DNA from: an uncultured virus (IMG/VR IMGVR_UViG_3300028797_000153)
Lineage: Duplodnaviria; Heunggongvirae; Uroviricota; Caudoviricetes
Length of the DNA stretch: 20,000 nt
Virus record (IMG/VR): IMGVR_UViG_3300028797_000153
Direction: 5' to 3' (one strand)
Shown: positions 1,614 through 20,000 of the stretch, piece by piece
Layout: every line of letters starts with the position of its first letter
Position numbering within the stretch: the first letter of the stretch is position 1
Program-made: the position numbers and the translations under genes
The notes under the pieces: model-generated
Seen by the model: the letters and a program-made list of their open reading frames with translations, nothing else
What the model was told of the DNA's origin: nothing
Database searches by the model: none

Positions 1614-2123
1614 ATGTCTGATACACCAAATAACTATGGCATATTATTAAATAAAAATATTAAATTGCATAGAAACTGGTTTAAGCAAATGACAAAGCTT
1701 ATCGGTATCAACTGCATTTATAAAGCTCCACTACCTGGAAAACATTTTGACACACATGGTGATTTAGATGCTGACTACTTCCCAGGAAAATTAGTTGGCT
1801 GCATTTTTCAAGATCATCCAGACCAAAAAACATTAAAGAAAATGGGATGGGTCGCTGAATTACAAGAAGGCTCATCTGTTATCCATGTTCCATATGATTT
1901 ACCAGATTTACAAGTAGGCGCGCTTTTTATCGTACCTAGCGGAATAGACAATGCACAAGGCCGTGTTTTCCGTGTAATTAGTATGCAAAATATTATGGTT
2001 TATCCTGCTTCTATTGCCTGTGAAATTGCTCCTGAATATATTGATGATGTTGAACCAGTACTAACAAGAGACTTTGAAGATACTAATTTTACAATGCTTG
2101 TAGACCATGAGGAGGATGACTAA
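1614..2123 (+). CDS. Neck / head-closure protein (T4 gp14-like)
   Basis: GGGAGG RBS upstream; motifs 'LIGINCIY', 'TLKKMGW', 'PDLQVGALF' resemble the gp14/head-closure pattern (G..v.Y ... L.kfG ... P..GDLI); position before tail genes. Confidence 0.6.
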   Translation: MSDTPNNYGILLNKNIKLHRNWFKQMTKLIGINCIYKAPLPGKHFDTHGDLDADYFPGKLVGCIFQDHPDQKTLKKMGWVAELQEGSSVIHVPYDLPDLQVGALFIVPSGIDNAQGRVFRVISMQNIMVYPASIACEIAPEYIDDVEPVLTRDFEDTNFTMLVDHEEDD

Positions 2124-2124
2124 T

Positions 2125-3909
2125 ATGAATAAATTTATATTAAGTGAATTAGCCTCAAAGTTTATTTTAGCTGAAAAGTATATTTTAACTGAAGCGACTG
2201 CTGAAGAAAAAAATAAAGCTAAAGAAGCATATTTAAAAGCTAAGGATGCCTTTAATAAAATATATCCAAATGCAAAAACTTTCCTAGAAGAAGCAAACGG
2301 CTCTAAAGAATTAACTACTGATGAAAAGTTTATTAATGAAATTAAACCATTAGAAAAAGAAATTGCTGCTGGAACTATTACTGATGTTCTTGATTTAAAG
2401 AATAAAGGCAAAGAATATATTGATAAAGTATCAGCCAAACTAGATAAAATCCCAAACTTTGAAGAAAAATACCCACAAATTGACCAACTAGTTTTTGATA
2501 TTAAAAACCTTATTGAAAAAGGTAAAGATGAAGATATTAAAGGTAGACTTGGTAGTGAGGTTGAAAAACTTGGTGCAACTGTTGATGAAGTTTTTGGTAG
2601 CAGTGAAAAAGCTGATGCTGATAAAACAGTTAGCGAAAATGCATTAAAAAATCTTAATAATATAAATGATTTTGACATTTCTGCAGCATTAGAAGCTATG
2701 GATAATGGTGATGAAAAAGATGAATTAGCCAATGCTGTATATGGTGAATTAGGAAATATTACTACTATATTAACTGATATTACTAAAACTATTACTGATG
2801 CTGTTGGTAAAAAAGATACATCTGATGCTGCTTTAGCAGCTTTAAATGATGCACTTACTGACGCATATGATAAATTAAAAGAAAATAAAAAAGCCGCATC
2901 ATTAGCAGATTTAAGTAATAAAAATAAGAGTGCTGAGGAAAGTGAAGATGCTGCACACCTTATAGACCTATTAAAAGCTGCAAAGAATGATCCAAAAGCA
3001 TTTGAAGCTGCACTTATGTCAATATTAAAATTAGCTTTTGGTTCTAATGATGACCTAATTAACGCTATTTTAAAATTAAATGTTGATGGTGCTATTGCTG
3101 ATGAAATTATACATTATGGCCCAGATGCTAAACAAAATCCATTTTTATATTTCTTAGATAAAAACCAAGATTTATTAAAAAATGGTAGTATAACGCCTGA
3201 AAAATATAAGATAATTCATAATGCTTTTGTTAAAGGTAATGCTTCTGGAGTATTTGGTGATGCTGATTTAAGAGGTACTGGTAGATTTGGAAACTCTGAT
3301 ATTATTTTTAGCGGTTCACTTTATGACTATGGCCCAGATGATATTACTAAGTACTTTAATTTAAGGGAACAAGTAATTAACCTATTTAATGGCTCAACAA
3401 AATTTAGTAATGATTTATTAGCTGAAAAATATCAAAATAATATTAAAAACTTCTTTGCTGATTTAATGTATGAAGGCGGCGATTTATTTAACCCAAAAGG
3501 TAGTGCTGCTGGACCTTCTGCAAATAGACAACTTAAAGGACTTAAAGCAATTGAAGATGAATTAAAAAATTGTTTTGATGAAGAAGCACTTAAAAATAGC
3601 AAACCAAAAGGAACAACAGCTGTTAATGAAAAAGTTGTTAAAAGCTGGATTGAATCTCTTGGTGGTGATAAGAGAAAAGTTGGTCAACTTATCATCTACT
3701 TAGCAACAAGATTTGTTTCTGCTTCAAGTGCAAAAGCTGTTCAAGAACTTTTGGATAAATATGCCGAAACAAGAAAAGTCCCGCTTGATGCTGCTAATAT
3801 TGTACCACTTAGTACAACAATTGGGAAACCTGATATTACAGATAAAAATCTTGCTGATGTAATTAAACAGATTGCAGAAGCAGCAGGACTAGAAGGTGCT
3901 GGAGCTTAG
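2125..3909 (+). CDS. Hypothetical 594-aa helical protein, candidate internal head (ejection) protein
   Basis: GGAGG at 2111-2115 supports ATG 2125 rather than 2107; Ala/Lys/Asp/Glu-rich; N-terminus MNKFILSELASKFILAEKYILTEA; ends TAG. Confidence 0.6.
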   Translation: MNKFILSELASKFILAEKYILTEATAEEKNKAKEAYLKAKDAFNKIYPNAKTFLEEANGSKELTTDEKFINEIKPLEKEIAAGTITDVLDLKNKGKEYIDKVSAKLDKIPNFEEKYPQIDQLVFDIKNLIEKGKDEDIKGRLGSEVEKLGATVDEVFGSSEKADADKTVSENALKNLNNINDFDISAALEAMDNGDEKDELANAVYGELGNITTILTDITKTITDAVGKKDTSDAALAALNDALTDAYDKLKENKKAASLADLSNKNKSAEESEDAAHLIDLLKAAKNDPKAFEAALMSILKLAFGSNDDLINAILKLNVDGAIADEIIHYGPDAKQNPFLYFLDKNQDLLKNGSITPEKYKIIHNAFVKGNASGVFGDADLRGTGRFGNSDIIFSGSLYDYGPDDITKYFNLREQVINLFNGSTKFSNDLLAEKYQNNIKNFFADLMYEGGDLFNPKGSAAGPSANRQLKGLKAIEDELKNCFDEEALKNSKPKGTTAVNEKVVKSWIESLGGDKRKVGQLIIYLATRFVSASSAKAVQELLDKYAETRKVPLDAANIVPLSTTIGKPDITDKNLADVIKQIAEAAGLEGAGA

Positions 3910-3912
3910 TTT

Positions 3913-4242
3913 ATGTTATTTATTGCACAAAGCCATAAATATACACCAAAAGGACTTGTTAAAATAAAGATAAAAAGAATTGCTAAATATCATGTCTACC
4001 ATTGAAAATTATCTGGAAATGATATAGCAGTTGATAATTATTGTAAACAAAAATATAATAAATCATTAAAAGAAGTTTGTTGATATATTATTGATAAAAT
4101 AAAAGTATTTATAAGCAATGATGAAAATCAATATATTATAATACTTGAAGATAAAAATTTAGATAAGCTTGCCCATATAATCACTTATGGTAATGGTGAA
4201 ATTGGTGGAAGTCAAATATTACAAAAAGCATTTATATTCTAA
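3913..4242 (+). CDS. 109-aa putative neck/tail-completion protein (2 in-frame TGA; missing from ORF track)
   Basis: GGAG RBS at 3901, ATG 3913, TGA at 4003 and 4081, TAA 4240-4242; fills the gap exactly. C-terminus 'LAHIITYGNGEIGGSQILQKAF' resembles the (L/I)(E/T)YG motif of phage neck/tail-completion proteins. Confidence 0.7.
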
Positions 4243-4260
4243 GAAAGGGAGTAATCAAAT

Positions 4261-4938
4261 ATGGCAATAAGATATTATGATGATGCTATTATAAAAAAAT
4301 TACTACGCTGGGTACCAGAAAACCAGGGCCTACGTGTTTTAAAGCCAGATGAAACAAAAAGATTATTTGAAATAATTGCTGATGATACTAATGACAAACC
4401 AATTAGACTTCCATTCATTGCCCTTTCAAGAAATACAGATATTGAACTATTATCAAACATTAAACAAAACAAATCTTTTGATGGTTTATGATTAAATAAC
4501 AACAAACTTGACCTCAATAATAGAGTAATTGAAGAAAGTTCAAGCACAACAATATTCAATGTTATTCCAATTCTTCCACAATATCAACTAGATATTTATA
4601 CTAAAACTTATGAAGAAGCGGATGAATTATTAAGAAATATACTATTTAAATTAATTAATAATCCTGCAATTTATATTTCAATTCCTTATAATGGACAAAA
4701 TATAACGCACATTGCAAATATCAGAGTTTTAAGTGGTTTAGCTGATAATAGTGGTATTAATGAGCGTATATTTTCTGGCCAATTTACTAGATGAACAATA
4801 CAGCTTGAAATTCATGACGCCTTCCTATTCAGCATACCATATAGAAATAACTGAAGAATTGGTGAAAGTGCCCTCGAAGTGTCTGAAAAAATGGACTTAG
4901 ATGGCGAAATTGAAGTTGCATATAGCAATAAAAATTAA
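4261..4938 (+). CDS. Putative tail terminator / tail-completion protein, 225 aa (3 in-frame TGA)
   Basis: ORF 4261..4491 continues in frame through TGA 4489, 4792 and 4852 to TAA 4936-4938; 'LPFIALSR', 'PQYQLDIYTKTYEEADELLRNILFKL' match the tail-terminator pattern; lies immediately before the sheath. Confidence 0.75.
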
Positions 4939-4960
4939 TTAAAAGCAATTTAATAAATAT

Positions 4961-4975
4961 GCTAAATTAATTGAG
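4961..4975 (+). promoter_or_regulatory. Candidate late promoter motif GCTAAATTA (copy 1, upstream of sheath)
   Basis: GCTAAATTAATTGAG; the same 9-mer occurs in four intergenic positions. Confidence 0.6.
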
Positions 4976-5031
4976 TTATGAAAATATTATAACTTTTTAG
5001 AGACAGAAGTTAACAATAAGGAGAAATACAC

Positions 5032-6687
5032 ATGCCACAAATTGTTATTAGAGAACATGATAAAACAAAAGCCGGCCTTGGTACCTACTCAAATTTTTCT
5101 GTTTTAATTCCAGGATTTATCAGTTCAACTGCAGTTGCTACTGATTTATGGGATGATAACGATATTCTTGAGTTAAATAACCAAGCTGATTTTGAAAAAT
5201 ATATTGGCAAAGTTGCTGCTGATGTAAATCCACAAACTGCTGAAGCACCTGTATTCACATATCCAGAAGCATGGAGGGTGGAAGAAAAAGATGGTGACGT
5301 CGTTACCGCAGTTACATATAACATTACAGGAAAATTAACTGCTGATGAATTTTATGGAACATTCGGTGGAAGAGTTTATGAAAAAGTAGCTTGGGAAGCT
5401 GGTATAACACCATATGATGGTGAATTAGCTGTTGCAGCCACTGCTGAAGATGAAGTTGAAACTGATCCAGAAACAGGCGTTGTAACTACACATAAAGGAG
5501 CCGAACAAGGCCGTTATGTTAAAAGAACACAAGGTTGGAATGCAAATACAAACTATTGTATTATTGAGCCAGAAAATATTGGCCGTGATGCAAGAAGCGT
5601 TACACCACAAATTGGTAACCAAATTGCTTATGAATTATTAGGATTAGGTTATACTGTATTATATAAGAAAATTATTGCTGAAAATATTGCATTTAGTAAT
5701 AATGATGAAGAGTCAAGTGGCATTCAAATGTCAGAATATGATTTCTGGAGACCATTTGAAGATAAAGCAACCTATGATTTCAGATATGTAGTTACTGGAT
5801 TCTGCGGTGAAGATGATACTCAACCATATAAAGATGTTAATAGCAGAATTAGTGAATTAGCAAATGCTCGTGGCGATTGTATTGCTCTTGTTGATATTCC
5901 AAAAGAAGTTTATAAAACATACAGTAGCTGGAAATCCGATGTTATTGCTTATGCTAATGCATTAAGTAATGCTAATAAGTATACAGCTTTATTTATGCCA
6001 GTTGTTACATATGACATGAATAGTGATGCAACATATCAAAATGATACATTCCCAGCATACTTCCATTATTTACTTTGTGCAAGTGATGCATTTGTTAACT
6101 ATCCAGAATGGTTTGCTGTTGCTGGATATACTCGTGGTATTTCTTCTGTCTATAATATTAAGAGCACACAAATTAAACTTGGTGATGCTGCAATTAATGC
6201 ACTTGAACCAAGAAGCACAAGTGGTACTGGCAGATTAACAAAGGCTATCAATGTTGTTGCAAATATTAAAGGTACTTACTATTTATGGGGCAATAGAACT
6301 GCTCACTTACTTGGTACAACTGGTGATCCTGTTAATGGTGATCTTGTTGCAAGCCACTTCTTAAATATTAGACAACTTTGTACTACATTAAAGAAACAAC
6401 TTTATGTTGCATGCCGTAAGTTCACATTTGATCCAAATAGTGATACATTATGGGCAAACTTCTGTAATGCAATTACACCAACCCTTGATAAAATGAAAGC
6501 AAATCAAGGTATTGATGATTATAAAATTATCAAAGTTCCAACAGATACTAAAGCATTATTACAAGCTAAGATTAGAATTGTTCCAATTGAAGCTGTTGAA
6601 GATTTTGAAATTGACTTATACTTAGAAGATTCAATTTCTGGTGCTGATGTTGAAATTGATGAAGGAACTGTTGGTACAAATAACTAA
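5032..6687 (+). CDS. Contractile tail sheath protein
   Basis: AAGGAG RBS; 'RGDCIALVD', 'WFAVAGYTRG', 'LWGNRT', 'FLNIRQL', 'FTFDPNSDTLW', 'IVPIEAVEDFEI' are typical sheath C-terminal motifs. Confidence 0.93.
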   Translation: MPQIVIREHDKTKAGLGTYSNFSVLIPGFISSTAVATDLWDDNDILELNNQADFEKYIGKVAADVNPQTAEAPVFTYPEAWRVEEKDGDVVTAVTYNITGKLTADEFYGTFGGRVYEKVAWEAGITPYDGELAVAATAEDEVETDPETGVVTTHKGAEQGRYVKRTQGWNANTNYCIIEPENIGRDARSVTPQIGNQIAYELLGLGYTVLYKKIIAENIAFSNNDEESSGIQMSEYDFWRPFEDKATYDFRYVVTGFCGEDDTQPYKDVNSRISELANARGDCIALVDIPKEVYKTYSSWKSDVIAYANALSNANKYTALFMPVVTYDMNSDATYQNDTFPAYFHYLLCASDAFVNYPEWFAVAGYTRGISSVYNIKSTQIKLGDAAINALEPRSTSGTGRLTKAINVVANIKGTYYLWGNRTAHLLGTTGDPVNGDLVASHFLNIRQLCTTLKKQLYVACRKFTFDPNSDTLWANFCNAITPTLDKMKANQGIDDYKIIKVPTDTKALLQAKIRIVPIEAVEDFEIDLYLEDSISGADVEIDEGTVGTNN

Positions 6688-6707
6688 GGTAAAGGAGAAA
6701 ATAAATT

Positions 6708-7301
6708 ATGGCAAATTACGAACCAAGTTTATCAGGACAACACATTAGCTCAAATCTTGCTAATTATGAAGCAGCAAGAACTGGCTTCTTCTCATTCTTA
6801 GTAAATGATATCGACAATATTATCAGAGCAACTTATACTGGTGATAGAACAAAAGATATTCCAGCAAGTGATAAAATTGCAAATGCTCAACAATATCTTA
6901 AATTAAACGTTGTTAAAGCAGATGTCCCACACTTTAGCTTAGAACCATTACAATACAAACGTGGTAATGACACAATCAAGTTTGCTGGTACTCCAACATT
7001 TGATGCTGGTACAATTACAGTTGATGATGTCATTGGACTTGATACTAAATCAATCTTAATGGCATGGCAAGCACTTGCTTATGATGTATACTCACGTCGT
7101 GGTGGAAGAATGGTTGACTATAAGAAAGATTGTACTCTTATTGAATACACCCAAGATTTCCAACAAATTAGAAGCTGGAAGTTATATGGCTGCTGGATTT
7201 CTGATTTAAGTGAAGATGCATTTGATAAAGAAAATGATGGCAAACGTCAAATTTCTGCAACTATTCAATATGATAGAGCTGAAATGATTATGCCTCAATA
7301 G
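6708..7301 (+). CDS. Tail tube protein (T4 gp19-like)
   Basis: AAGGAG RBS; follows sheath; 'IKFAGTPTF', 'DYKKDCTLIEY', 'WKLYGCWIS', 'TIQYD' motifs. Confidence 0.9.
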   Translation: MANYEPSLSGQHISSNLANYEAARTGFFSFLVNDIDNIIRATYTGDRTKDIPASDKIANAQQYLKLNVVKADVPHFSLEPLQYKRGNDTIKFAGTPTFDAGTITVDDVIGLDTKSILMAWQALAYDVYSRRGGRMVDYKKDCTLIEYTQDFQQIRSWKLYGCWISDLSEDAFDKENDGKRQISATIQYDRAEMIMPQ

Positions 7302-7324
7302 TTATCAGCAAAATAACTTAATAT

Positions 7325-7357
7325 AAAAGGTTAAGCAAAGCTTAATCTTTTTATTTT
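7325..7357 (+). terminator. Intrinsic terminator after sheath-tube operon
   Basis: AAAAGGTTAAGC-aaa-GCTTAATCTTTT (12-bp stem with one G-U pair) running into TATTTT. Confidence 0.8.
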
Positions 7358-7366
7358 ACAAAATAG

Positions 7367-7388
7367 ATTTAATAAAAATTTAATAAAA
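7367..7388 (+). repeat. Tandem 11-bp direct repeat ATTTAATAAAA x2
   Basis: Exact copies at 7367-7377 and 7378-7388, upstream of the RHH gene promoter motif. Confidence 0.5.
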
Positions 7389-7405
7389 ATAAAAGCAATA
7401 AAATT

Positions 7406-7420
7406 GCTAAATTATATAGA
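7406..7420 (+). promoter_or_regulatory. Candidate late promoter motif GCTAAATTA (copy 2)
   Basis: GCTAAATTATATAGA, downstream of the terminator and upstream of RHH/chaperone genes. Confidence 0.6.
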
Positions 7421-7445
7421 AACTTGAAAGGAATAAAGTTGTAAT

Positions 7446-7607
7446 ATGGGAAGGATTAAATTAGACAGAAGCAACAAAGTAATGCAATCTTTTGAATCAT
7501 CTAAACCGCTTAAAGAACGACTTGAAAAAATTGCTCAAAAGAAAAATATTACTGTGTCTGCTTTAATCAGACAAATCTTAGAAAACTATATTGAAGAAAG
7601 GAATTAA
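7446..7607 (+). CDS. Ribbon-helix-helix (CopG/Arc-like) DNA-binding protein, 53 aa (missing from ORF track)
   Basis: MGRIKLDRSNKVMQSFESSKPLKERLEKIAQKKNITVSALIRQILENYIEERN*; 'L..IA.K.NITVSALIR.IL..Y' is the RHH helix pattern; GAAAGGA upstream. Confidence 0.8.
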   Translation: MGRIKLDRSNKVMQSFESSKPLKERLEKIAQKKNITVSALIRQILENYIEERN

Positions 7608-7608
7608 T

Positions 7609-8379
7609 ATGGAAATGGAGAGACAAGAAAATTACACAATTATGGAAGGTTATGAATTACCTTCTAAGGGCCTTATTTATGACAAAAAGGTCAATCCACA
7701 TGTTGAATTAAGAAGCATGACTGCAAGGGATGAAATGAAACGTTTATCCCCATCATCTACACCATTCAAAACACTTGCTGACATTATTGAAGGCTGCTTA
7801 ATTGAAAAGCCAGCAGTTCATGTTTATGATATGGCTATTGGTGATTATGAATATTTATTACATAAGTTAAGAATTGTTACTTATGGTGATGAATATAAAG
7901 TTGAATTACAATGTCCATTCTGTGGCGAAACATTTGATGCAATAACTCACTTAGAAGATATTGCTGTTAAAGATTTCGATCAAGAAAAATTTGAAAAACT
8001 TAGAAATTTAAAATTACCTAAGAGTGGTGATGATATTGTATTAAAATTCCAGACACCACATATTCTTGATGAAATTGATAGCAAAACACGTGAATATAAA
8101 CGTAAATATAAAGATGCTTCTATCAGTTTTGATCTATTAGCCATATTAATTTGTTCAATCGAGTCTGTTAATGGCGTTGAATATGCTGAGTATGATTTAG
8201 AAAACTATATTAATAAATTACCAGCTATGGATATGACAAAAATTATTAACACACTTGATGAGTTAAATAAATGCGTCGGTATCGAAAATGAATTACAAGT
8301 AACATGTAAACATTGTGGTGGCGACGTAAATACCTTTTTTCGCTTCGGGACCGAATTTTTTAGACCCTCAACTATCTAG
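7609..8379 (+). CDS. Tail/baseplate-hub assembly chaperone (T4 gp26-like), 256 aa
   Basis: GAAAGGA RBS before ATG 7609; 'YELPSKG', 'LRSMTARDE', 'DYEYLLHKLRIVTYG', two CxxC motifs (CPFC, CKHC), C-terminal 'EFFRP'; located between tube and tape measure. Confidence 0.8.
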   Translation: MEMERQENYTIMEGYELPSKGLIYDKKVNPHVELRSMTARDEMKRLSPSSTPFKTLADIIEGCLIEKPAVHVYDMAIGDYEYLLHKLRIVTYGDEYKVELQCPFCGETFDAITHLEDIAVKDFDQEKFEKLRNLKLPKSGDDIVLKFQTPHILDEIDSKTREYKRKYKDASISFDLLAILICSIESVNGVEYAEYDLENYINKLPAMDMTKIINTLDELNKCVGIENELQVTCKHCGGDVNTFFRFGTEFFRPSTI

Positions 8380-8584
8380 GGATGGTAAACCTTACGGTCC
8401 TAAAAGATTTAAGGAAATTATTAGGGAATGCTGGTATATAAGTGATAATTTACATACTAGCTATACAGATGTATTAGATTTAAGCTTTCAAGAAAGAGTT
8501 TATCTAATAGAATGTATTAATGAAAAGCAGGCAGCAACAAAAAAAGCTATTGACGAAATACAAGCAAAAAACAAGAGTAAATAG
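8330..8584 (+). CDS. Start-less ORF, probable frameshift extension of the chaperone (gpGT-like)
   Basis: +1 frame open from 8330 (after TAA 8327) to TAG 8582-8584 with no in-frame ATG/GTG/TTG; reads ...FLDPQLSRDGKPYGPKRFKEIIRECWYISDNLHTSYTDVLDLSFQERVYLIECINEKQAATKKAIDEIQAKNKSK*; overlaps two TTT TTT runs. Confidence 0.7.
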   Translation: MPFFASGPNFLDPQLSRDGKPYGPKRFKEIIRECWYISDNLHTSYTDVLDLSFQERVYLIECINEKQAATKKAIDEIQAKNKSK

Positions 8585-8598
8585 CTAAATTATACGAG
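8584..8598 (+). promoter_or_regulatory. Candidate late promoter motif GCTAAATTA (copy 3, upstream of tape measure)
   Basis: GCTAAATTATACGAG running into the GAGGT RBS. Confidence 0.55.
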
Positions 8599-8606
8599 GT
8601 ATTTTT

Positions 8607-10705
8607 ATGGATGCAATAACAGAGTATGAGGCAAAGTTAAAAGAATCTAATTCAAAACTTAGCGCTTATGAGTTTGAAATGGAAGATAAGCTTTATAAGC
8701 TACGCCTTCAAATACAGAAAAACTTGCAGAAGCTAAGGCAAAATATGACACTGCTGGATATGATAAGATAGCCAAGCTCGGTTTATTAGCAACCAAAAAA
8801 GATTTAGAAAATGCTCAGAAAGCTGCCCATGCTGCCGCTGAATTAAAATACCGTGAAGAACGTGGTATAAAAGGCAAGCTTTCAAAAGAAGATAAGAAAG
8901 CATTAGCTGCACAATTTGCTGAGCAAGATGCTAACTTAACTAAAAAATATAAAAAAGAATCTAAATTAGCAGACCAAATACATAAGCAAGCACAAAAGAA
9001 TATTGCTGCTGAAAATGCACAAAGAGCTGCTGGTGCCTTAAAAGAAGGTTTATTTGGCAGCGGAAAATCAATGGCTGAAAGAAAACAAGCCTTATATGAT
9101 GCTTTCCACCAAAATAAAGATGGCAGTAAAAATACTCTTGCTGGTTTAGCAACATTAACAAATGCTTTATCTGACTTAACAAAACAATTAGATAGTAGTA
9201 TTGAAGAAATTGCCAAACAAAAAGGTGCTATTGATACACGTTTACAAGGCTCTGGTTTAAAAAGGAGACTTGGTTCATATTGGGATGCTATAAGTAATGA
9301 CATTATTGGTGTAGCAGGTGTTTCGCCATTAGTTAGACAATCCGATGTTGTTAAAAATGTTGGCACAATGGTTGATGCAGGTATTGCATATAACGTTGAA
9401 CAACGTGCTTTTTTACAAACAATTAAAGATAAAATTGCAACTACATTTGATGCTAATAATGGTACACTTTTAAGATTAGTTCGTATTCAACAACAAGATT
9501 CCACAGCTGCTCGTTTAGGCATGGAGTCTGCAATGAACTCATTCTTAAATAATATGTATGAAAATACAGAATATTTAAAAGGTGTTGCAACTGCTGTTAA
9601 GAGCAACTTAGAAGAAGCTATGTCATTAATGTCTGCAACTGATGCTGTAAGCTTTGAATATCAAGTCCAAAAATGGATGGGTTCATTATACTCTGTTGGT
9701 ATGTCCCAAGGTGCTGTTCAAGGTTTAGCAGGTGTCGTTGGTAAATTAGCTGCTGGTGATATTTCAGGTATTACTGGTGGTGGACAAGGAAACTTATTAG
9801 TTATGGCTGCAAATAAAGCTAATCTTTCACTTGCAGATATGTTAGCTAATGGTTTAAATGATTCTGATACAAATAGATTATTAGATGCAATGGTTGACTA
9901 CTTAGCACAAATTGCTAATGACTCTAAAAATAGTAGAGTAGTTCAACAACAAATTGCTAATGTTTATGGATTAACTGCATCTGATTTAAAAGCTGCCACA
10001 ACACTATCTAAATCAAGAAAAGCTGTTGCAGGTGAATATTTAAGCTATAATGGTGCTCTTGCTCAATTAACAAGTATGGCAAGCAGTATGTATAGCCGTA
10101 CAAGTATTGGTGAAATGATGACCAATGTTTGGGATAACTTTAAATATACAATGGCTGGTGGTATTGCTTCTAACCTTCCACTTTATGCACTATATAAAGG
10201 TGCTGGACTACTAGATTCAATTGCTGGTGGTATTAACTTACCAGATATTAAAGTTATGGGTTCAGGCGTCAACTTACAAACAACTGTTGCTGACTTAATG
10301 AGGGTTACTGCTTTATCTGGTAGTATCTTATCTGGTATTGGCCAAATGATTGCTAATGCAGGTGCTGGAGGCGGCTTTAATCCTGTTGGCATGCTAAAAG
10401 CTATGGGTATTACTACTGTATCACGTGGCGGACGCACAACTGTTAGAGGCGCAAGTACATCTGAATCAGGTACTGTTGGTAATGCTTCTGGTGATGATGC
10501 ATATAACCAAACAATGGCTGGCGCTGAAGATACTCAAAAGAGCAAGATGGCTGAAGCAAAAGAAGATGAAGAACAAGATGTTGCAAATAAAGTAATTAAT
10601 TCTAATGTTATCTTAATTCTTGAAGAGCTTAGAAAGATTACCGGACAAACTGTAACACTTAGAGTTTCAACTGGTACAGATAGAAGAAACGGCTTTATTG
10701 ATTAA
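8607..10705 (+). CDS. Tape measure protein (about 699 aa) with a -1 frame break near 8710-8723
   Basis: GAGGT RBS + ATG 8607 opens a helical ORF that stops at TAG 8769; the frame of ORF 9071..10705 is open from 8699 with no ATG until 9071. Ala/Gly/Leu-rich helical sequence in the canonical position after tube and chaperone. Confidence 0.75.
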
Positions 10706-10718
10706 GGAGGATATAGTA

Positions 10719-12233
10719 ATGATACAATTTAACTCAGACCATATTATTGTTGGACAAATAAAGCAATTACTACATTCTTTTAACTTACCAACCTATCGTG
10801 TTTATACAAAAGAACAAAGGCAATATTATGAAAAAACTGGCCAAGAATTAAATGTAATTTCTTCTGTCCCAATTATAACAGGTTCTACAAATATTCCTGA
10901 TCATGTAAGATATATTGATTATATTAAAGATAATAAAATTCAACGTTATTATGCTGAAACAACAATCGTAAATGGCACTGCAGTAGTTAAAGCACCAAGC
11001 TGGCATGAAACAGGTAAAACATATTATTATAATAAAAAAGAATTAAATAGAACTAAAAATTTAAAAATTACTAATAATATTTATGATACTTATACTCATG
11101 AATATTTAGGAAATTACTTAAGATTTCAACGTGATTATAATGGTATCAATTTAATGCCATTCTACAACTGCTTTAGTAATAATATTGTTTCATCATCTTT
11201 AAAATATGAAATACAAACAAGTGGCATTGCTGCTGATGAAGCTGGATATAGCACAAAAATAATTAGTACATTTGATACAAGTAATGATAAGTATAAAATT
11301 TATATGGTACCTGTAAAGGCATTCCAAACATATACTATCGCTGTTGATAGTGCTGATGGACTTGAGCTTTGTTGTGGTATCTATGATAAATACAGTGATA
11401 CTCGTGAAAAATTAGCACATATTCCATCACTTACATACCTTAATGTAAAATCTGCTTCATTTAATCACCCATTTTTATATGACAAATTATTAGACATTAC
11501 AAATAGTATGTCTGAGGAAAGTAATGCGGAGTTAGCCACTATTGAAAAAAATCTAAAGCTTTTTATCAAATTACCTGCTGAAAATAAGTCAACAATTGTA
11601 ATTTTGGAAGGAAATTATTGTAGTTGAAATGATAAATCTGTGTATGAAGAAATTTCAAGTAGTGGCCAAACAAAAATGCAATATACTAATTTTGCTCAAA
11701 CAAATATTTATAATAATCATATTGTAAATAACTATGAAAAAAATACTAGCTCAATATTTGATACCTATCCAGATTTTAATGAAAGAAATATGCAATTTAT
11801 TACTGCACTACAATTACTGTTATTAAACACTGGCCAACAATATCCATTTTCTGATAAGCTAATTGAATTTTTAACTGATAATGTAATTAATCCATTAGAT
11901 ACTATTTCTGATAATATTAAACGTGCTCAAACAGTTATAAAAGAAAATAATAATGAAATAGATGTTGATGGTATTTGGTCTGGAGAAATGCAAGCAATTT
12001 TATATGACTTTGTAAATTCAAAAACAAGCTTAAATAATATTACTTCTAGTGATAGAGTAGATTGTATAGGCTATGGCGACAAAGTTGTTGAAAAAGCTTA
12101 TAAGAGTACCAAAATTACTACCACACGAGTTGGTGATAAAACAAAAAGAACCAGGGAAGTTATTAATACTCTTAATGATATTAATCTTTATGAAAGTACA
12201 TATAAAAATAATTATAAAGGAGGAAGTAAATAA
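10719..12233 (+). CDS. Hypothetical tail/baseplate-associated protein, 504 aa (1 in-frame TGA)
   Basis: GGAGG at 10706 supports ATG 10719; ORFs 10698..11627 and 11640..12233 share a frame and are separated only by TGA 11625 (ILEGNYCS-W-NDKSVYEE). Confidence 0.75.
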
Positions 12234-12235
12234 CT

Positions 12236-12871
12236 ATGCCAACAAATATAATTGATGAGCCATATCCAACCGATACTTACCCTTTTCCTGATAACTATAT
12301 TTATATTTCACACTTAGATGAAGGATTAAAATTCTGGCGTATTCCATGCTGGCCAGATGCAATTTCTGATACTATGCAATCTAACTTTGCAACAACAACT
12401 GCTTTAGGTCGTTCTGCGCCTGTTTACACATTTAGTAATGCCGGCCCAAGAACTGTCCAAATAACTATTGCTTTGCATAGGGATATTATGGACGATGTTA
12501 ATACTGGTGTTAGTAATTCTGAACTTGCTATGGGTGAAGATTATATTGATAATTTAGTAAATGCTTTAAGAGCTATTGCTGTTCCAAGATACAATCTTTC
12601 AAATAAAGCTGTTGAACCACCCCTTGTTGCACTTAGACTTGGGCGTGAAGTTTTTATTAAAGGTGTTGTTACAAGTGGCATAGGTATTGATTTTACTAAA
12701 CCAATTCTAAAAAATGATAGATATGCACAAGTTAATTTATCATTAGCAATTTCTGAAGTTGACCCATATGACGCAACATCTGTTTATCAAAATGGTGGAT
12801 TTAGAGGTGTCGTTCAAACATTTAAAGGAAGTCACCCAACTCAAAATGGTATTGATGGTATGGGCTTATAG
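12236..12871 (+). CDS. Baseplate tail-tube initiator-like protein
   Basis: AGGAGG RBS; 'PDAISDT..SNF..TTALGRSAPVYTFSNAGPRTVQITI' and 'PPLVALRLG..FIKGVVTS' fit the tube-initiator family; synteny. Confidence 0.7.
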   Translation: MPTNIIDEPYPTDTYPFPDNYIYISHLDEGLKFWRIPCWPDAISDTMQSNFATTTALGRSAPVYTFSNAGPRTVQITIALHRDIMDDVNTGVSNSELAMGEDYIDNLVNALRAIAVPRYNLSNKAVEPPLVALRLGREVFIKGVVTSGIGIDFTKPILKNDRYAQVNLSLAISEVDPYDATSVYQNGGFRGVVQTFKGSHPTQNGIDGMGL

Positions 12872-12883
12872 GAGGTATAATTT

Positions 12884-13213
12884 ATGGATACACTAAAAGA
12901 TAAAAAATATAATAGCTTTGATTATACTTGTCGCTATACAGACGTCCCATATTATTATAATATAAAAGATAAAAAATATATTTATGGAATTGGCAGTAAC
13001 TTAAATAAACAAACTGCTTATATTGCCCATAAAGTAAAAGAAACTGATACTCTTGATTATCTTGCTTTAAAATACTATAATAACCCAACTTTCTGGTGGA
13101 TTATTGCTTATTTTAATGATATTCAAGATGCATTTATTAAATTAAGTGATAAATATAGTGTACTTAATATTCCTAGTATATCTAGTATTCAATTTGGAGC
13201 TGAAAGAGAATAA
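12884..13213 (+). CDS. LysM-like baseplate wedge protein (T4 gp53 / P2 gpX-like)
   Basis: GGAGG RBS; 'HKVKETDTLDYLALKYYNNPTFWWIIAYFNDI...LNIP'. Confidence 0.85.
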   Translation: MDTLKDKKYNSFDYTCRYTDVPYYYNIKDKKYIYGIGSNLNKQTAYIAHKVKETDTLDYLALKYYNNPTFWWIIAYFNDIQDAFIKLSDKYSVLNIPSISSIQFGAERE

Positions 13214-14535
13214 TGGCAACATTAAAATTTTCTGAACAACGTAGATCATTACTATCAAGCCAGGCAAGAGTACAAGCACCATGAGTTAAAGTAACTATTG
13301 GTACTTTTACTTTTGGTGTTTTTTCAAAGGCAGAAGCTAATAGTAAAAATTCGCAGGGATTTTATACAGCCGGTGCTTACAGCATTCAGTATCCAAATTA
13401 TATTCAATCATTAACTATTACAAAAATTAATGGCCAAGTAAACCAATATACATTAAATATTACTTACCCTGTAAAACAAACAGATGACCCTAACTTTTTT
13501 GAAAAGGTATTTAGCAGTGTAAGCAAAACCCGTGAAATTATATTTAGCTATGGTGATGCAACAATGCCATCATATATCTATAAAGATGAAAAAGCTATTA
13601 TTACAAGTATTCAACAATCTTTTAATCTACAAAGCTCAAGTATTTCATATGTAGTTAATGCTGTTTCTGGTGCCGCTCTTGGGACATCAAGTTGCTTTAC
13701 TTTTATGGCAACAACTAAAAAACCAAGTGATGAAATTAAAAGAATTATAATGGCAAAACAATATGGTTTAAGAGACCTTTTTACTGGCATTACAGACAAT
13801 AATATTAATACATTAATTGCAGGTGATGACCAAGTTGTTTCATTAGCATCTAAAACAAATATTTCAGCTTTAGATTATATTAATTATTTAGTTAGTTGCA
13901 TGATTCCTATCGGCTCAAGTAAAGATAACAGAAGCAAAGATATTTATGTTTTAACTTTACATGATGACACTTCTTATGATAGAATTTATGCTGATCGTGA
14001 AACTATTGAAGGTCGTGAAATTGTTGGACCATACTGCAAAGTAACTAAAATGTCATATACAACAAAACAAAGTGATGCATTTGAGCTTGATATTGGTTAT
14101 AATACTTCAACTATTGTTACAAATTTCCAAATAAGCCAAAATGAAAACTATGCTTTATACTATGACTACAATAAAAAATTACTACCAGAAGAATATGTTA
14201 GAAGAATTAATGATAATGGTAAATGGGAAGATGTTTTTGCTCCAACAAGTACATCAAGAAATAGCACACATGCAACTTGGCCAGATGATATTACTTGATG
14301 GACAAAAATTACAAAATATCCAATTAGTGCAACAGTAACAATTCAAGGCTTACTCAGACCAGCCACACTTATGACTTATCTTAGACTAAATGTTATTTTT
14401 CCTGGTGGCCATAGACATATTAGTTCTGGCTTATACCTAATTACAAAACAAGTTGATACTATTGATGGTAATGGCTATAGAACACAATTATCACTAACAA
14501 AACTTTCAGGTGATGAATCAGACTTAGGAGTATAA
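13213..14535 (+). CDS. Baseplate hub protein (gp27/gpD-like), 440 aa (2 in-frame TGA)
   Basis: TAATG stop/start overlap at 13211-13215; same frame as ORF 13564..14298; TGA at 13282 and 14296; TAA 14533-14535; C-terminus 'ATVTIQG...SGLYLITKQVDTIDGNGYRTQLSL' is hub-like. Confidence 0.8.
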
Positions 14536-14539
14536 TTTA

Positions 14540-15382
14540 ATGCTAACAAAAGGTGAAATTCAAAGTATAGATTTTACAGGCAATTCTTGTAGAATAAGAA
14601 TACCTCTTTTTGAAGTAGCTGGTATTGAAGATAAGGTATATGCTACCGCTTATTTTGCTGTTGAGCCTGGAAAATATAATAGCTATAAACCTGGTGATGT
14701 TGTCATTATTGGTTTTGAATCAGACCTCATTGATAAGCCAATTATCTTAGGAAAGCTTTATACAAGTATTAATGAAGACCAGCTTGATGATAATGGCTAC
14801 CGTGGAAGTATTGATTGTACTAGCTTAAAAGTTAAAGAAAATGCTTCAATTCCAATTAGTACAAAAATAATTAAAAATGCATTAAGTGTTAAAGATGATG
14901 CTGCAACTACAACTATTAATGATATTATTAATACTATAAATACCAATAAAACGGATATTGAAAACATTAAGAAAAATCTTGATATAACTAATGATAATTT
15001 AAATTATAATGAACAATTACTTTGGGAAAATCCTGCACCAAATAGTGCTTTTGCTGCACAAGATATTGCACTAAATATGGATTATACTAAATTTAAATAT
15101 ATAGTTATTTTTTATAGATTTTACTTTGGCAATTGTGTTGAGCAAAGCCTGAAAATTATTCCACCAAATATTGTAGATAATATTATGGACAGTCATAATC
15201 AAACATTTATAACTGGTGGAAACTATGCAAATGACTGAGCCAGCCGCCAAATTGACTTTATTGACAGAACACATCTTAAAGTATATACTGGTAAAAGAGT
15301 GGATGCAAATAACCCAACTAGTGGTACAAATAGAACTGAATTCTGTATTCCAACTAAAATATATGGTGTAAATAACCTATAA
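14540..15382 (+). CDS. Baseplate spike-like protein (gp5/gpV OB-fold N-terminus) with fibre-type C-terminal domain, 280 aa (1 in-frame TGA)
   Basis: AGGAG RBS; 'CRIRIP', 'PGDVVIIGFE...KPIILG' OB-fold motifs; continues through TGA 15236 to 'FCIPTKIYGVNNL*' (TAA 15380-15382). Confidence 0.75.
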
Positions 15383-15422
15383 ATTTAATAAATTTTTAAT
15401 AGATAAAAAGTATATAAAAATT

Positions 15423-15438
15423 GCTAAATTATACTGAG
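15423..15438 (+). promoter_or_regulatory. Candidate late promoter motif GCTAAATTA (copy 4, upstream of wedge genes)
   Basis: GCTAAATTATACTGAG running into the GAGGAG RBS. Confidence 0.6.
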
Positions 15439-15448
15439 GAGCCAATGT

Positions 15449-15838
15449 ATGACATCAATAAAATTCCCAAATATGTTTAATACAAATAGCACAAATGTAT
15501 GAAAAAGTAGTGAACATAATGAAGCCACTACTCAGAATACAATTATTTTATTACACTGTGAGCGTGGTGAACTTTTTGATGACCCATACTTCGGGTTAAT
15601 GTTAAGGCACTATATGTTTGACCAAAATAACTATGTGCTTCGTGATGCAATTGCTGATATGGTTTATACTCAACTTGCATTATTTATTCCTCAAGTACAT
15701 GTTAAACGTGAAGATATTAGAATTATTCAAAATAAACAAAAAGGAAAATTATATTGTGTATTTAAAGGTATAAATCAAATTGACTATAAAACTAATACAT
15801 TTAATTTGACTTTATTTGAAAATACAGAAGCATTATAA
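15449..15838 (+). CDS. Baseplate wedge / sheath initiator (T4 gp25 / gpW-like), 129 aa (1 in-frame TGA)
   Basis: GAGGAG RBS, ATG 15449, TGA 15500; 'ILLHCERGELFDDPYFGLMLRHYMFD' is the gp25 signature and lies mostly upstream of the ORF-track start at 15599. Confidence 0.88.
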
Positions 15839-15853
15839 TAAGGAGACAGAAAA

Positions 15854-18800
15854 ATGATTACAGAAAAAGATTTAGAAGCTCTTGAGCTATCTCCAACTAA
15901 AAAAGATTTTTATCAAATTTGAAATGAGCTTTTAGAAACCGCTAAAAAAATATCTGCCAGATGGGATCCAACAAGTACAAATGAATCAGACCCTGGTATT
16001 GTTTTACTTAAAGTTTTAACTGGTATCGCTGATAAATTAAATTATAATATTGATAAAAATATTCTTGAAGCTTTTATGCCAAGTGCAACTCAACAAGATT
16101 CAATGCGTAAGCTTTGTGAACTTGCTGGTTATAATATTAAATATTATCAATCAGCTGAAATAAAAGTTAGAGTTGGTTGGGCAGGTTATACAAATAATGG
16201 TACTTTTACTATTGAAAAAAATGAATCTGCAGGTATTAAAAGTATTTTTATTCCTCAATTTTCTGTAATCAAAAATAATGATGAAGATATTGTCTACACT
16301 ACTACTGAAGGTGGCACTATTCAATCTAATATACCTGTTATCGAAATTAACTGTATTGAAGGTCAAGTTATTCAATGCTCACCTGATACTGATTATGTTA
16401 TTTCATTAGATAACTTAGATGATAATTTTAGATATTACTTACCAGAAGCTCAAATTGCTGAAAATGGTTTCTTTGTTTATAATATTAATAATGGAGCATA
16501 CCAAAAAAATGAGTGGTCAAAAGTTGATAACTTAAATACACAACCAACAAAAGCAAAAGTATATAAATTTGGCTTTGATTCACATTTAGGACTTCCATAT
16601 TTACAATTCCCAGAAGATGTTGGAAATATTATTGAAGATGGTTTATATATTTATTATACAAGAACTTTAGGTGTTAATGGTAATATTGCAGCAAGAACCC
16701 TTAGTAAAATTGAACTTGCTGATGGTGCAGATGAATATAATACTGATGCAAATAATTACACAGATTCAACTAATGATGTTTCTGCATATTACGAACTATT
16801 AAGCATTTCAAATGAAAATGCTGCTATGAATGGTGCCAATATTGAAACCATTACACAAGCATACAATAACTTTAAGAAAACTGTTGGTACATTTGACACA
16901 TTAGTTACTTGCCGTGATTATATGAACAAAATTTATCAATTATATGATGATTTAAATGTTCCACTAGTTTCTAATGTTATTGTTAGTGATATTCGTGATG
17001 ACCTTAATAGAGCATTTACACTTTGTACTTTTGACCAATATGGAATTAAATACACTGATACAAAGATGATTGATTCTACTACTAATAAAGAAAGAATTAC
17101 AAACTTTGATATTATTTTATACCCATTTAAAACAATATATGGTTTAAATAATGAACAAGAGTTTATTGATTCATTTAAATTTTCTGCTGCTAACTCTATA
17201 CTAATTGAAAGTGAATTAGACAGCTTAAAAACTATTTCACATAATATTATTATACCAAATGGAACAAGCACGGATATTTTATGTATTAAAAATTACTTTA
17301 AAATTAATGCAAAAATCACAACTACAACAAAAGTTAATGCCATTGAAGAAGCATATATTTTAGATAATATCTATAAAAATATTTATAAAACATTTAATGC
17401 TAGACAACTTGACTTTGGTGAAACTATCCCATTTGACTCTATCTTAGAATGTATTGAAACAGCTGATACAAGAATTAAAAACGTTTCTATGGAAGAGCCT
17501 ATAATTATTACAAAAGTTGCACTTATTGATGGTACTGAAATTGATATATCTGATATTACAAGTCAAGATAGTGGTAGCAGTGGTGCTGGTATTTATGCTG
17601 GCTTAGTTACTAAAAATATTTTAGCTGGAAGAGCACCATTATTTGATTATGATGAAACATTTAAACCAGAGCTTAGTGAATCAACTTATACAGGATTAGG
17701 TCAATATAATAAAATTACAAAAATTGAACCAATATGTGATTATAATCCACAAGCTGGCTCTTTAACTGCTAATGGTATACTAAAGAAAAATGAAATTATA
17801 CAATTTAGAGCACCTAGCTTAAAAACAACATTAACATATCCAGCATATGTTAACTATTTTGCAAAACTTAATACGGGTACTGCTGAAGATGCCCACCCAG
17901 CAACTATGAAAACAGTACTTAATTTTATGGATGAAACAGTTAGCGGTACTAATAACTGGGATGATTTATTAACGCATACATCAGATGATGTTTATACAAA
18001 TTTAATTGCTAAAAAGGTTCCTATTACATTTACAACTAGTGATGCTTTTACAGCTAACTTAGCAAATTATGGCTGTATTTTTAAACTTAATGATAGCAAT
18101 GTATTAGTTAAAGCAACAGTAGCAGATTGGCATGATGCATCTAGTCAATTCTATGTATTTCCAATTACATCTGATACATTTGTTGGCTGGACAATTTACA
18201 TTAAAACTACAGGCATTATGGAAAGCGGTGCCTTAAAAGCACGTACTGGTTTATATACAAGCTTAGGAGTTAACTTAAATAATCCGGCTGGAAAATTAGT
18301 TGATAGTGGACATAAAAAATATAGAATATGTAATATCCCAGATTCATTTACACAAGAAAGCTCACTTAAATACTATTTTGTACAAGATATGAGTGGCCCA
18401 AACCCAAGTGCAAATGATTATGGTATTGGTATAGATGCTACAGTTAGGGGCATACCAAAAAACTGTGAATATACACTTGGTGAAGGTGAATATATCTTAA
18501 TAAACTATACAAAAGCAGGTAGTAGCCAAGAAGATGGCTCTACAAGTGCTGATACAATTATTAATGAGGTACTTAGTAGTAGTGATGGTACTATTATTAA
18601 AACAAACTTTGATCTATATGACTCAAGTGTCTATAATAGTAGTTTATCACATAGTTTTTCAAAAACTACAGGCTTTGGTCCTTGGAATGGTTATTCAACA
18701 CCAGCTGGAATGTTTACACTCGGTCCAAATGAACAAATTGAAGTTAGAAAACCGGTTGCTATTACATTAGATTCTGGTAATAATAGCAGTAAAAATATTA

Positions 18801-20000
18801 ATATTTATTGGTTATTAAATAATAAAACTCAAAATGAAAGCTTCCCAATTTCTAATGATGGTTATACACTGCAAGAAAATGAATACTTCTTCTATACTGA
18901 TGAAAATAAACTTGAAATGTCATATTTTGGAAGTGGAACAAAAATAAAAATACAAGGCTTAATTCCTACTAAAAACATAAATACAAGTGATGTTTCAGCA
19001 GATGATATTATTGAAAAGGGAATTCTAGCAATACCTTGGGTACAAGTTTCTGTTAATAATACTGGAACGAGAAAAATTGATATTATAGAATACCAATATA
19101 TTACATTAGCTGAAGGTGATGCACTTAGCTCAATTAGCTTAATAGATAATAATACAGATGACCCTATAACAACTATTGGAGATCACTGATATGGATGTTC
19201 AGCTGCTACATATATTATTGATGGTGAATCAGGTGAATTACCAGCATTTAATAGTGATAGTTTAAGTTGGGAAGTACATAGTAAATTATTATTAAACGTT
19301 GGACCTGCTTTGACTCAAACATTAGCTGACTCAAGAGATTCTATTAAAATTAGATACACTCCAGATGGACAAACCACACCTACTACTAAAACTATTGCAT
19401 ATGAAGCTGGTGATGATGCAATTTCATTCAAAACTAACTATCTTTGCCAAAGTGGTAATGATATAATTTTAATTAATAATGATATAGATGATTTCAAACT
19501 TAAAGCATTTAAATCAAATACTTTAGAAACAACTTATATTAAAGCTGATACAGAAGAGTCTGTTACTGAAGCATTAACTACAAATAATTTTGGTAATTAT
19601 TGGACAAAACTTTCATTTGAAAAATGTGCCATAAATAATGATTCAACTACACAATTATATTGTAATATTAATAGTAGTGATCAATTTGGCATGCTTATGA
19701 TTTACCTTGTTAAAAAAGAAATTGACTATGCTAATGATGACTGGCCATATTTAACAATTGATAATGGTAGTTTAGCTATTTATAACTATCCAAATAGCTC
19801 TTCTGAAACATGGTGGACAAATGCTGCAGCCATTTATTCTGCAAGTATTACAGAGGATAGCCCACTTGATTGAGCAAATAAAACATATTATACACGCAGT
19901 GAATCTGCAAATAATATGCCAACTGCTAGTAGTTATGTTGATATTTATGGTTATAAATATACAGAGGCAGCTGAAGTTGACTATGATTCTAGTACTGTCT
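15854..20000 (+). CDS. Giant baseplate wedge protein (T4 gp6 / gpJ-like N-terminus), >1380 aa, 3' truncated (3 in-frame TGA)
   Basis: AGGAG RBS, ATG 15854; 'KDFYQI(W)NEL', 'NESDPGIVLL', 'DKLNYNID', 'AT...SMRKLCELAGY', 'LVTCRDY' are gp6/J motifs; TGA at 15920, 19187 and 19871 join ORFs 16076..19189 and 19310..19873 in one frame that stays open to the window end. Confidence 0.85.

Follow-up and report, generated by a model that had tools for sequence, protein, structure and literature searches.

We have analysed a 20,000-nucleotide stretch of DNA (hereafter the window) from an uncultured Caudoviricetes virus, IMG/VR record IMGVR_UViG_3300028797_000153, which carries the late genes for the tail and baseplate of a large myovirus from bovine-gut metagenomes. 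The best explanation overall for its reading frames, and one that we consider highly probable, is that UGA is read as tryptophan (Trp; genetic code 4), that TAA and TAG are the sole terminators, and that this recoding is run by the phage.

A first-pass annotation, made from the letters alone, had listed 13 in-frame TGA codons in seven genes. All the positions (4003, 4081, 4489, 4792, 4852, 11625, 13282, 14296, 15236, 15500, 15920, 19187, and 19871) and frames have been confirmed, and the codons lie in the plus-strand open reading frames (ORFs) 3913–4242, 4261–4938, 10698–12233, 13213–14535, 14540–15382, 15449–15838, and 15854 to the window end. The 16 genes of the window contain no in-frame TGA beyond these 13. 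Over their ~6,175 codons, no TAA or TAG occurs in frame, while the +1 and +2 frames carry 363 and 1,124 stop triplets, respectively. This indicates that the reading frames are truly open. Among the 15 complete genes, 11 end in TAA, four in TAG, and none in TGA, just as had been stated.

The coding density of positions 3913–20000, counted on the plus strand and including ORFs open at the window ends, increases from 0.800 under code 11 to 0.925 with TGA as sense. In contrast, the control densities are 0.830 when TAG is the codon read through and 0.803 when it is TAA, which makes the increase specific to TGA. The claim that read-through closes all the large gaps was a slight overstatement: the rise in density is real, but the gaps 7302–7590 and 8380–9070 persist under code 4. 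As had also been noticed, read-through restores starts with ribosome-binding sites; those of the GGAG type are found at the code-4 starts 4261, 5032, 6708, 12236, 12884, 14540, 15449, and 15854. None is found before the code-11 fragment starts 11640, 13564, 15599, 16076, and 19310.

Tryptophan opposite TGA in homologous proteins

We have scanned IMG/VR with the 440-residue protein encoded at 13213–14535, and have obtained 69 related loci with 40–79% identity, the contigs reaching 237 kb. To avoid presupposing a residue, we took their ORFs from stop to stop and wrote X for TGA; the 16 proteins of the window were then used in BLASTP to collect homologues, which were aligned family by family. The homologues of the 440-residue protein match it along its whole length, before and after each of its two TGAs. 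At 14296, the 69 homologues have 50 TGG, 16 TGA, and 3 gaps, while at 13282 they have 33 TGG, 14 phenylalanine (Phe), 11 tyrosine (Tyr), 9 TGA, and 2 gaps. TGG is also the most frequent at 4792 (n = 39; 19 TGG, 11 TGA, 4 Phe, 2 methionine, 2 Tyr, and 1 isoleucine) and at 4852 (n = 39; 22 TGG, 7 TGA, and 10 others).

The remaining informative columns are more mixed. We have counted 20 Tyr, 13 TGA, 8 TGG, 2 Phe, and 1 gap at 15920 (n = 44); 12 TGA, 12 valine, 11 TGG, and 11 others at 15500 (n = 46); and 9 TGA, 7 TGG, 7 Phe, 6 leucine, 11 gaps, and 4 others at 19187 (n = 44). Tyr and Phe are the main residues at 11625 (n = 59; 22 and 13, with 4 TGA, 3 TGG, and others), and Tyr at 4003 (n = 10; 5 Tyr, 1 TGA, and 4 others). 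None of the 13 window TGAs faces glycine (Gly) in these homologue alignments. The protein contexts quoted earlier for the window, namely DITWWTK, FTRWTIQ, QAPWVKV, and YQIWNEL, are accurate.

In the tabulation of residues opposite TGA, which the first-pass annotation had suggested, homology continues past every informative TGA and Trp is the strongest signal by log-odds. Over the 11 usable columns of the 13, Trp scores +34.2 bits, compared with −7.7 for Phe, −11.8 for Tyr, −33.0 for cysteine (Cys), and −53.6 for Gly. The same calculation was applied to TGG, TAT, TTT, GGA, TGT, and AAA as controls, and each returned its own residue. When all the 165 columns with TGA in any of the 70 sequences are considered, the weight of Trp is 0.163 against a background of 0.0067, while that of Gly is 0.026 against 0.056. 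The weight of Cys is 0.004, and selenocysteine at TGA is ruled out on this ground. Overall, since Trp stands opposite TGA in the alignments, TGA means Trp, and we reject code 25, selenocysteine, and genuine stops. Judged from these sequence comparisons, TGA almost certainly encodes Trp in the window, and the preference for Trp over Gly in the first-pass annotation was well founded.

Source of the recoding

The window phage is a moderate TGA user, with TGA at 13 of its 57 Trp codons (23%), and its sheath and tube genes, with 12 TGG in total, are kept free of TGA. Tail genes of the relatives have TGA at a share of 0 to 0.87 of their Trp codons, and for the nearest relative, L001 (79% identity), the value is 0.53. 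At two loci, TGA serves as terminator, in 6 of 13 genes of L064 and 4 of 13 genes of L066, and none of the few in-core TGAs there has Trp opposite it; these two therefore use the standard code. On a hub-protein tree of 70 rows, recoded and unrecoded close relatives are intermixed. The tree requires 12 state changes at a threshold of 0.2, and 6 with strict classes, for which 22 ambiguous rows were dropped.

The under-use of TGA in sheath and tube genes is found in the relatives too, and fits the pattern of the window. In 17 recoded relatives, TGA accounts for 21 of 98 Trp codons of the sheath, and in the tube genes of relatives for 9 of 62. Together this is 30 of 160, compared with 481 of 841 in other tail genes (29 recoded relatives). 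Such sparing use of TGA for the most abundant virion proteins might reflect a suppression that is costly or incomplete.

We have then looked for the recoding machinery in the relatives, of which the complete ones are 166–237 kb long. A transfer RNA (tRNA) with anticodon UCA, tRNA(UCA), is present in G003 (TGA share 0.84), G004 (0.83), G011 (0.70), and G007 (0.30), and was not found in G005 (0.73), G008 (0.07), or G009 (0). That is, four of the five recoded near-complete relatives have it (all but G005), and neither of the two unrecoded ones (G008 and G009). The four suppressors have in common an 11-nucleotide anticodon-arm motif, which G005, G008, and G009 lack, as do G002 and G006, the fragments nearest to the window.

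The four suppressor tRNAs are dissimilar. Those of G003 and G004 are 79% alike, and that of G011 is 60–61% identical to both. The tRNA(UCA) of G007 (L116 2900–2995, minus strand) has 96 nucleotides, with a stem-forming insert of 22 nucleotides in the variable region; outside the insert, its closest sequence is the tRNA-Trp(CCA) of G008 and G009 (77% identity), and it looks like a converted tRNA-Trp. The clade carries three dissimilar types of suppressor tRNA. Some unusual tRNAs were also seen in the unrecoded relatives. ARAGORN reports in G009 a tRNA with a four-base anticodon, 'tcac' (L118 8667–8755, minus strand), and the tRNA clusters of G008 and G009 (L117 and L118) include several Rfam tRNA matches of 130–196 nucleotides that ARAGORN does not call. 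The latter may be intron-bearing tRNAs, as in alternatively coded jumbo phages.

Tryptophanyl-tRNA synthetase (TrpRS; TIGR00233) is encoded in 4 of 30 records; of the nine records with a completeness of 90% or more, four encode it. These four are exactly the four near-complete relatives with a TGA share of at least 0.70. Release factor 1 (RF1) is found in one of five complete genomes, namely G005, directly beside TrpRS. It scores 472 bits against a cut-off of 400, and 261 against 370 with the prfB profile, so it is RF1 and not RF2. When queried against genome contigs, this RF1 matches 11 loci of unrelated phyla at 34–52% identity, which is uninformative on the host. G005 (L103 184–1938; L081 1091–1496) thus combines adjacent TrpRS and RF1 genes and a transfer-messenger RNA with no detected tRNA(UCA).

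The genome-wide pattern can be seen in G003 (237 kb, complete), whose coding density rises from 0.699 under code 11 to 0.933 when TGA is taken as sense (ORFs ended by TAA or TAG only). TGA occurs in 108 of its 255 ORFs, with totals of 456 TGA and 467 TGG. Its use is blocky, the share being 0.68–0.84 in the structural region at 10–70 kb and 0.03–0.13 at 200–230 kb. For the functional split, we have scanned genes of 200 amino acids or more, namely all the 49 without TGA and 21 of the 60 with TGA, leaving out nine genes that cross piece boundaries. The TGA-free genes mostly serve replication or nucleotide metabolism, and include those of Pol A, DnaB, primase, clamp loader, RecA, gyrase A and B, topoisomerase, and ligase, together with NrdD, ThyA, DHFR, FolD, FTHFS, Lon, and TrpRS. 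The portal, prohead protease, and C1 peptidase genes, on the other hand, are among the TGA-bearing ones. Late and early genes thus appear to differ strongly in TGA use, though with exceptions on both sides.

Based on the relatives and the literature, a mechanism can be proposed. A phage-encoded suppressor tRNA with anticodon UCA, charged with Trp, would read UGA. A phage TrpRS may assist in the heavily recoded lineages, and a phage RF1, which recognises UAA and UAG only, may do so in at least one lineage. The TGA-bearing genes would then be completed only after this machinery has been expressed, and hence would be tied to the late phase.

Several observations weigh against a phage-run code in which TGA is Trp. 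The residues opposite 4081 are leucine (7), isoleucine (2), and Cys (1) in 10 homologues, and those opposite 4489 are lysine or arginine, gaps, and others. Two further TGAs give no help for Trp, because they lie in insertions specific to the window: 15236 is aligned to a gap in 34 of 37 homologues, and 19871 in 40 of 44. The tRNA search has found no tRNA within the 20,000 nucleotides of the window, and G005 is heavily recoded although none of its six Rfam tRNA matches has a UCA anticodon. As to the late-gene pattern, the major capsid gene of G003 has four TGG and no TGA, while its genes for an SNF2 helicase, ClpP, an AAA ATPase, and Mur-ligase-like proteins do bear TGA.

The main rival to phage-run recoding is that the host itself uses code 4, as a Mycoplasma- or Spiroplasma-type Mollicute does, and that the phage follows its host with no switch of its own. 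The first-pass annotation had mentioned Mycoplasma-type hosts as users of TGA as Trp. The low G+C content of the window (0.26–0.36, ~31%) and the lack of TGA terminators in its 15 complete genes agree with this. Nevertheless, TGA is the minority Trp codon despite the low G+C content, and the replication blocks of G003 shun TGA yet use TGG freely. There are also close relatives without sense TGA, some with TGA terminators, and at least six state switches on the hub tree. Moreover, tRNA(UCA), TrpRS, and RF1 are encoded by the relatives themselves, while a code-4 host would already supply all of them. A code-4 host is therefore unlikely, although it deserves more weight than any other rival. Since the machinery of the relatives is accompanied by a match to the phages described by Borges et al. 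(bioRxiv 10.1101/2021.08.26.457843), recoding run by the phage in a standard-code host is the likelier reading, and we take it as probable on the present analysis.

Alternatively, the TGAs might be real stops or errors, that is, signs of split or decaying genes, TGG-to-TGA miscalls, selenocysteine codons, or sites of low-level programmed read-through. Actually, most of the code-11 fragments are still longer than 60 codons. However, besides the homology across the informative TGAs, the missing ribosome-binding sites at fragment starts, and the rarity of Cys, TGA occurs at identical columns in independent metagenome contigs from other samples (e.g., 16 of 69 at 14296), which makes miscalls very unlikely. 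In addition, near-identical DNA exists in a second sample and study, as 82% of the sampled words of 13000–16000 (a word share of 0.82) are present in its sequencing run.

The fold of the gp25-like protein (15449–15838) points in the same direction. We have modelled the read-through product with AlphaFold from an alignment of 33 sequences, and the model is of moderate quality (predicted local distance difference test score, pLDDT, 67; predicted template modelling score, pTM, 0.57). The best PDB match in Foldseek is the gp25-like protein 2ia7 (E-value 4.5e-4; query TM-score, TMq, 0.65). T4 gp25 (5iw9_B) is matched with a TMq of 0.62 over 109 columns, and baseplate proteins of other contractile systems come next. 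The gp25 fold match spans 103–114 alignment columns, whereas the code-11 fragment at 15599–15838 has 79 residues; if the model is right, this is more than the code-11 product could supply. The model also supports the assignment of the product as gp25-like. Taken together, stops or errors are a very improbable account of the TGAs.

That TGA means Gly (code 25, which Absconditabacteria and Gracilibacteria use, and some of their phages too) is less credible still: code 25 gives ORFs identical to those of code 4 and an equal gain in coding density over code 11, in the comparison that the first-pass annotation had proposed, and the relevant part of a 2026 jumbo-phage survey (PMC13037316) takes recoded TGA as Gly, but Gly is missing opposite all the 13 TGAs, scores far below zero by log-odds, lies below its background in the 165 columns, and recoding is accompanied in the relatives by a synthetase for Trp.

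Gene content of the window

All the genes are on the plus strand. The tail sheath, tail tube, T4_baseplate, and gp25-like proteins stand in one block, which makes up a T4-type contractile tail and baseplate module (PHROGs 23, 4542, 150, and 261; PF06841 and PF12322 over their cut-offs). GenBank phages show no blastn match to 5032–9000, and the nearest record, G001, is a 5.9-kb fragment with no match to 13213–15838.

The three genes at the upstream end (2–1543, 1614–2123, and 2107–3909), outside the range of the first-pass annotation, have no family match in Pfam or PHROGs. They have four TGG and no TGA, and four Trp codons are too few to infer TGA avoidance. The next ORF, of 109 amino acids (3913–4242; TGA at 4003 and 4081), has no match in these two collections either. 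It is followed by a gene for a 225-residue protein (4261–4938; TGA at 4489, 4792, and 4852) with a weak likeness to the T4 gp15 tail sheath stabiliser (PF16724, E-value 0.0029, below the Pfam cut-off); the Shine-Dalgarno sequence AAAGGGAG precedes its start.

The tail sheath gene (5032–6687; PHROG 23, E-value 1.3e-14) has nine TGG, and the gene of the gp19-like tail tube protein (6708–7301; PHROG 4542, E-value 3.7e-19; PF06841, 29.3 bits, over the cut-off) has three; neither has TGA. The gene of the T4_baseplate family (baseplate hub) protein (7591–8379; PF12322, E-value 1.5e-20; PHROG 150) has no Trp codon at all. Its true start is likely ATG 7609, downstream of GAAAGGA, and the TTG start listed for it is probably wrong. 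Between the tube and hub genes, a 53-codon ORF at 7446–7607 takes up some of the gap.

A conserved tail protein of 544 amino acids starts from ATG 9071 in a frame that is open from 8699 (8699–10705; no TGA). It is 48% identical to a 778-residue homologue in G003, from residue 119 of the homologue onwards, and the alignment extends upstream of ATG 9071. There is no ATG, GTG, or TTG ahead of this ATG in 8699–9070. A frameshift, an indel, or an unusual start could explain the odd 5′ region. A 54-codon ORF at 8607–8771 lies in a different frame from this gene, and no similarity was detected for it.

The following gene, for a conserved protein (10698–12233), is broken by TGA 11625 under code 11. 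Its true start is likely ATG 10719, located 8 nucleotides after TAAGGAGG and just past the stop codon of the upstream gene, and its listed TTG start is probably wrong as well. Then come two genes without TGA, one for a conserved tail protein of 211 amino acids (12236–12871), with homologues in 61 loci and a weak CIS_tube match (E-value 0.0084, below the cut-off), and the other for a baseplate wedge subunit-like protein of 109 amino acids (12884–13213; PHROG 7145, E-value 7.1e-9).

The 440-residue conserved baseplate protein (13213–14535; TGA at 13282 and 14296; homologues in 69 loci) is what the first-pass annotation called the hub. It is followed by a 280-residue protein (14540–15382; TGA at 15236) and the gp25-like baseplate wedge protein, whose TGA 15500 is codon 18. 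The name gp25 holds, based on PHROG 261 (E-value 5.6e-8, residues 11–117) and the fold, while the names 'gp6' and 'hub' find no sequence match in Pfam, PHROGs, or PDB. The last gene (15854–20000; TGA at 15920, 19187, and 19871) encodes a large baseplate protein of more than 1,382 amino acids, the one for which the name 'gp6' had been used, which continues beyond the window end and has homologues in 45 loci.

Relation to known recoded phages and implications

TGA-to-Trp recoding in gut phages is already in print, and the window phage fits that known phenomenon. In the parts of Borges et al. (10.1101/2021.08.26.457843) on which we draw, gut phages with TGA recoding and suppressor tRNAs are described, with the recoding concentrated in structural and lysis genes. 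The standard code is predicted for their hosts, and phages that are very closely related can differ in code. Two 'Jade' genomes have an operon of TrpRS and RF1, written in the standard code, upstream of the lysis genes. The recoding machinery of such phages is restated in a 2023 mBio paper (PMC10746230), as far as its relevant sections go.

From what these sources give, the 'Jade' clade resembles the present lineage in being composed of large animal-gut phages, with TGA as Trp in structural genes, a TGA suppressor tRNA, and recoded modules across the genome, a likeness seen here in G003, G004, G005, and G011. The adjacent TrpRS and RF1 genes are matched only in G005, and the likeness is one of description, not of a tree. 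Unlike 'Jade', the window phage is moderate, with 23% of Trp codons as TGA, and the sampled clade covers 0–87% and has three dissimilar suppressor tRNA types. The 'Agate' phages, which according to the same source include TGA-recoded and standard-code genomes at more than 90% average nucleotide identity, are similar in that recoded and unrecoded close relatives are intermixed and TGA is found in structural genes while replication genes are clean. They differ in that the 'Agate' lineage is ~127 kb, compared with 166–237 kb for the complete relatives here.

The crAss-like and Lak phages with code 15, in which TAG is reassigned to glutamine (Peters et al. 2022, PMC9523058), share, as described in the portion of the paper used here, the reassignment of a stop in late genes, a suppressor tRNA, and a release factor that ignores the reassigned codon. 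The differences are TAG versus TGA, glutamine versus Trp, and RF2 versus RF1. Metaproteomic proof, in the same portion, is for code 15 only and not for TGA to Trp. As outlined in the consulted sections of the mBio paper (PMC10746230), phages of code-25 hosts (Absconditabacteria and Gracilibacteria) are also alike in having dense in-frame TGA and a density gain with TGA as sense. However, their residue is Gly and the phage follows the code of its host, while here the residue is Trp.

What may be new is the graded TGA series, the presence of several kinds of suppressor tRNA in one clade, and the way in which the most abundant virion proteins avoid TGA; within the portions of the literature covered, none of these three points was found made for this lineage. 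It is even possible, though we put this forward as a tentative and somewhat doubtful view, that the clade is a natural series of a code change underway, which would range from 0 to 87% TGA, with at least six switches, at least three suppressor tRNAs recruited, and TGA kept from sheath, tube, and major capsid genes. In such a series, the window would be early or intermediate at 23%.

The habit of using TGA as Trp breaks standard gene prediction. In this module alone, code 11 fragments or misses seven genes, including those of the gp25-like wedge protein and the largest baseplate protein, and standard-code annotations and viral-protein catalogues misread this phage and many of its relatives. The choice of residue matters as well, since the jumbo-phage survey (PMC13037316), in its relevant part, assumes Gly while the alignments of this clade say Trp. 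For proteomic proof of TGA to Trp, an abundant cattle-gut lineage with known TGA-spanning peptides is a practical target. Finally, because TGA use is graded among the relatives, they could serve to follow the spread of a code change within a genome.

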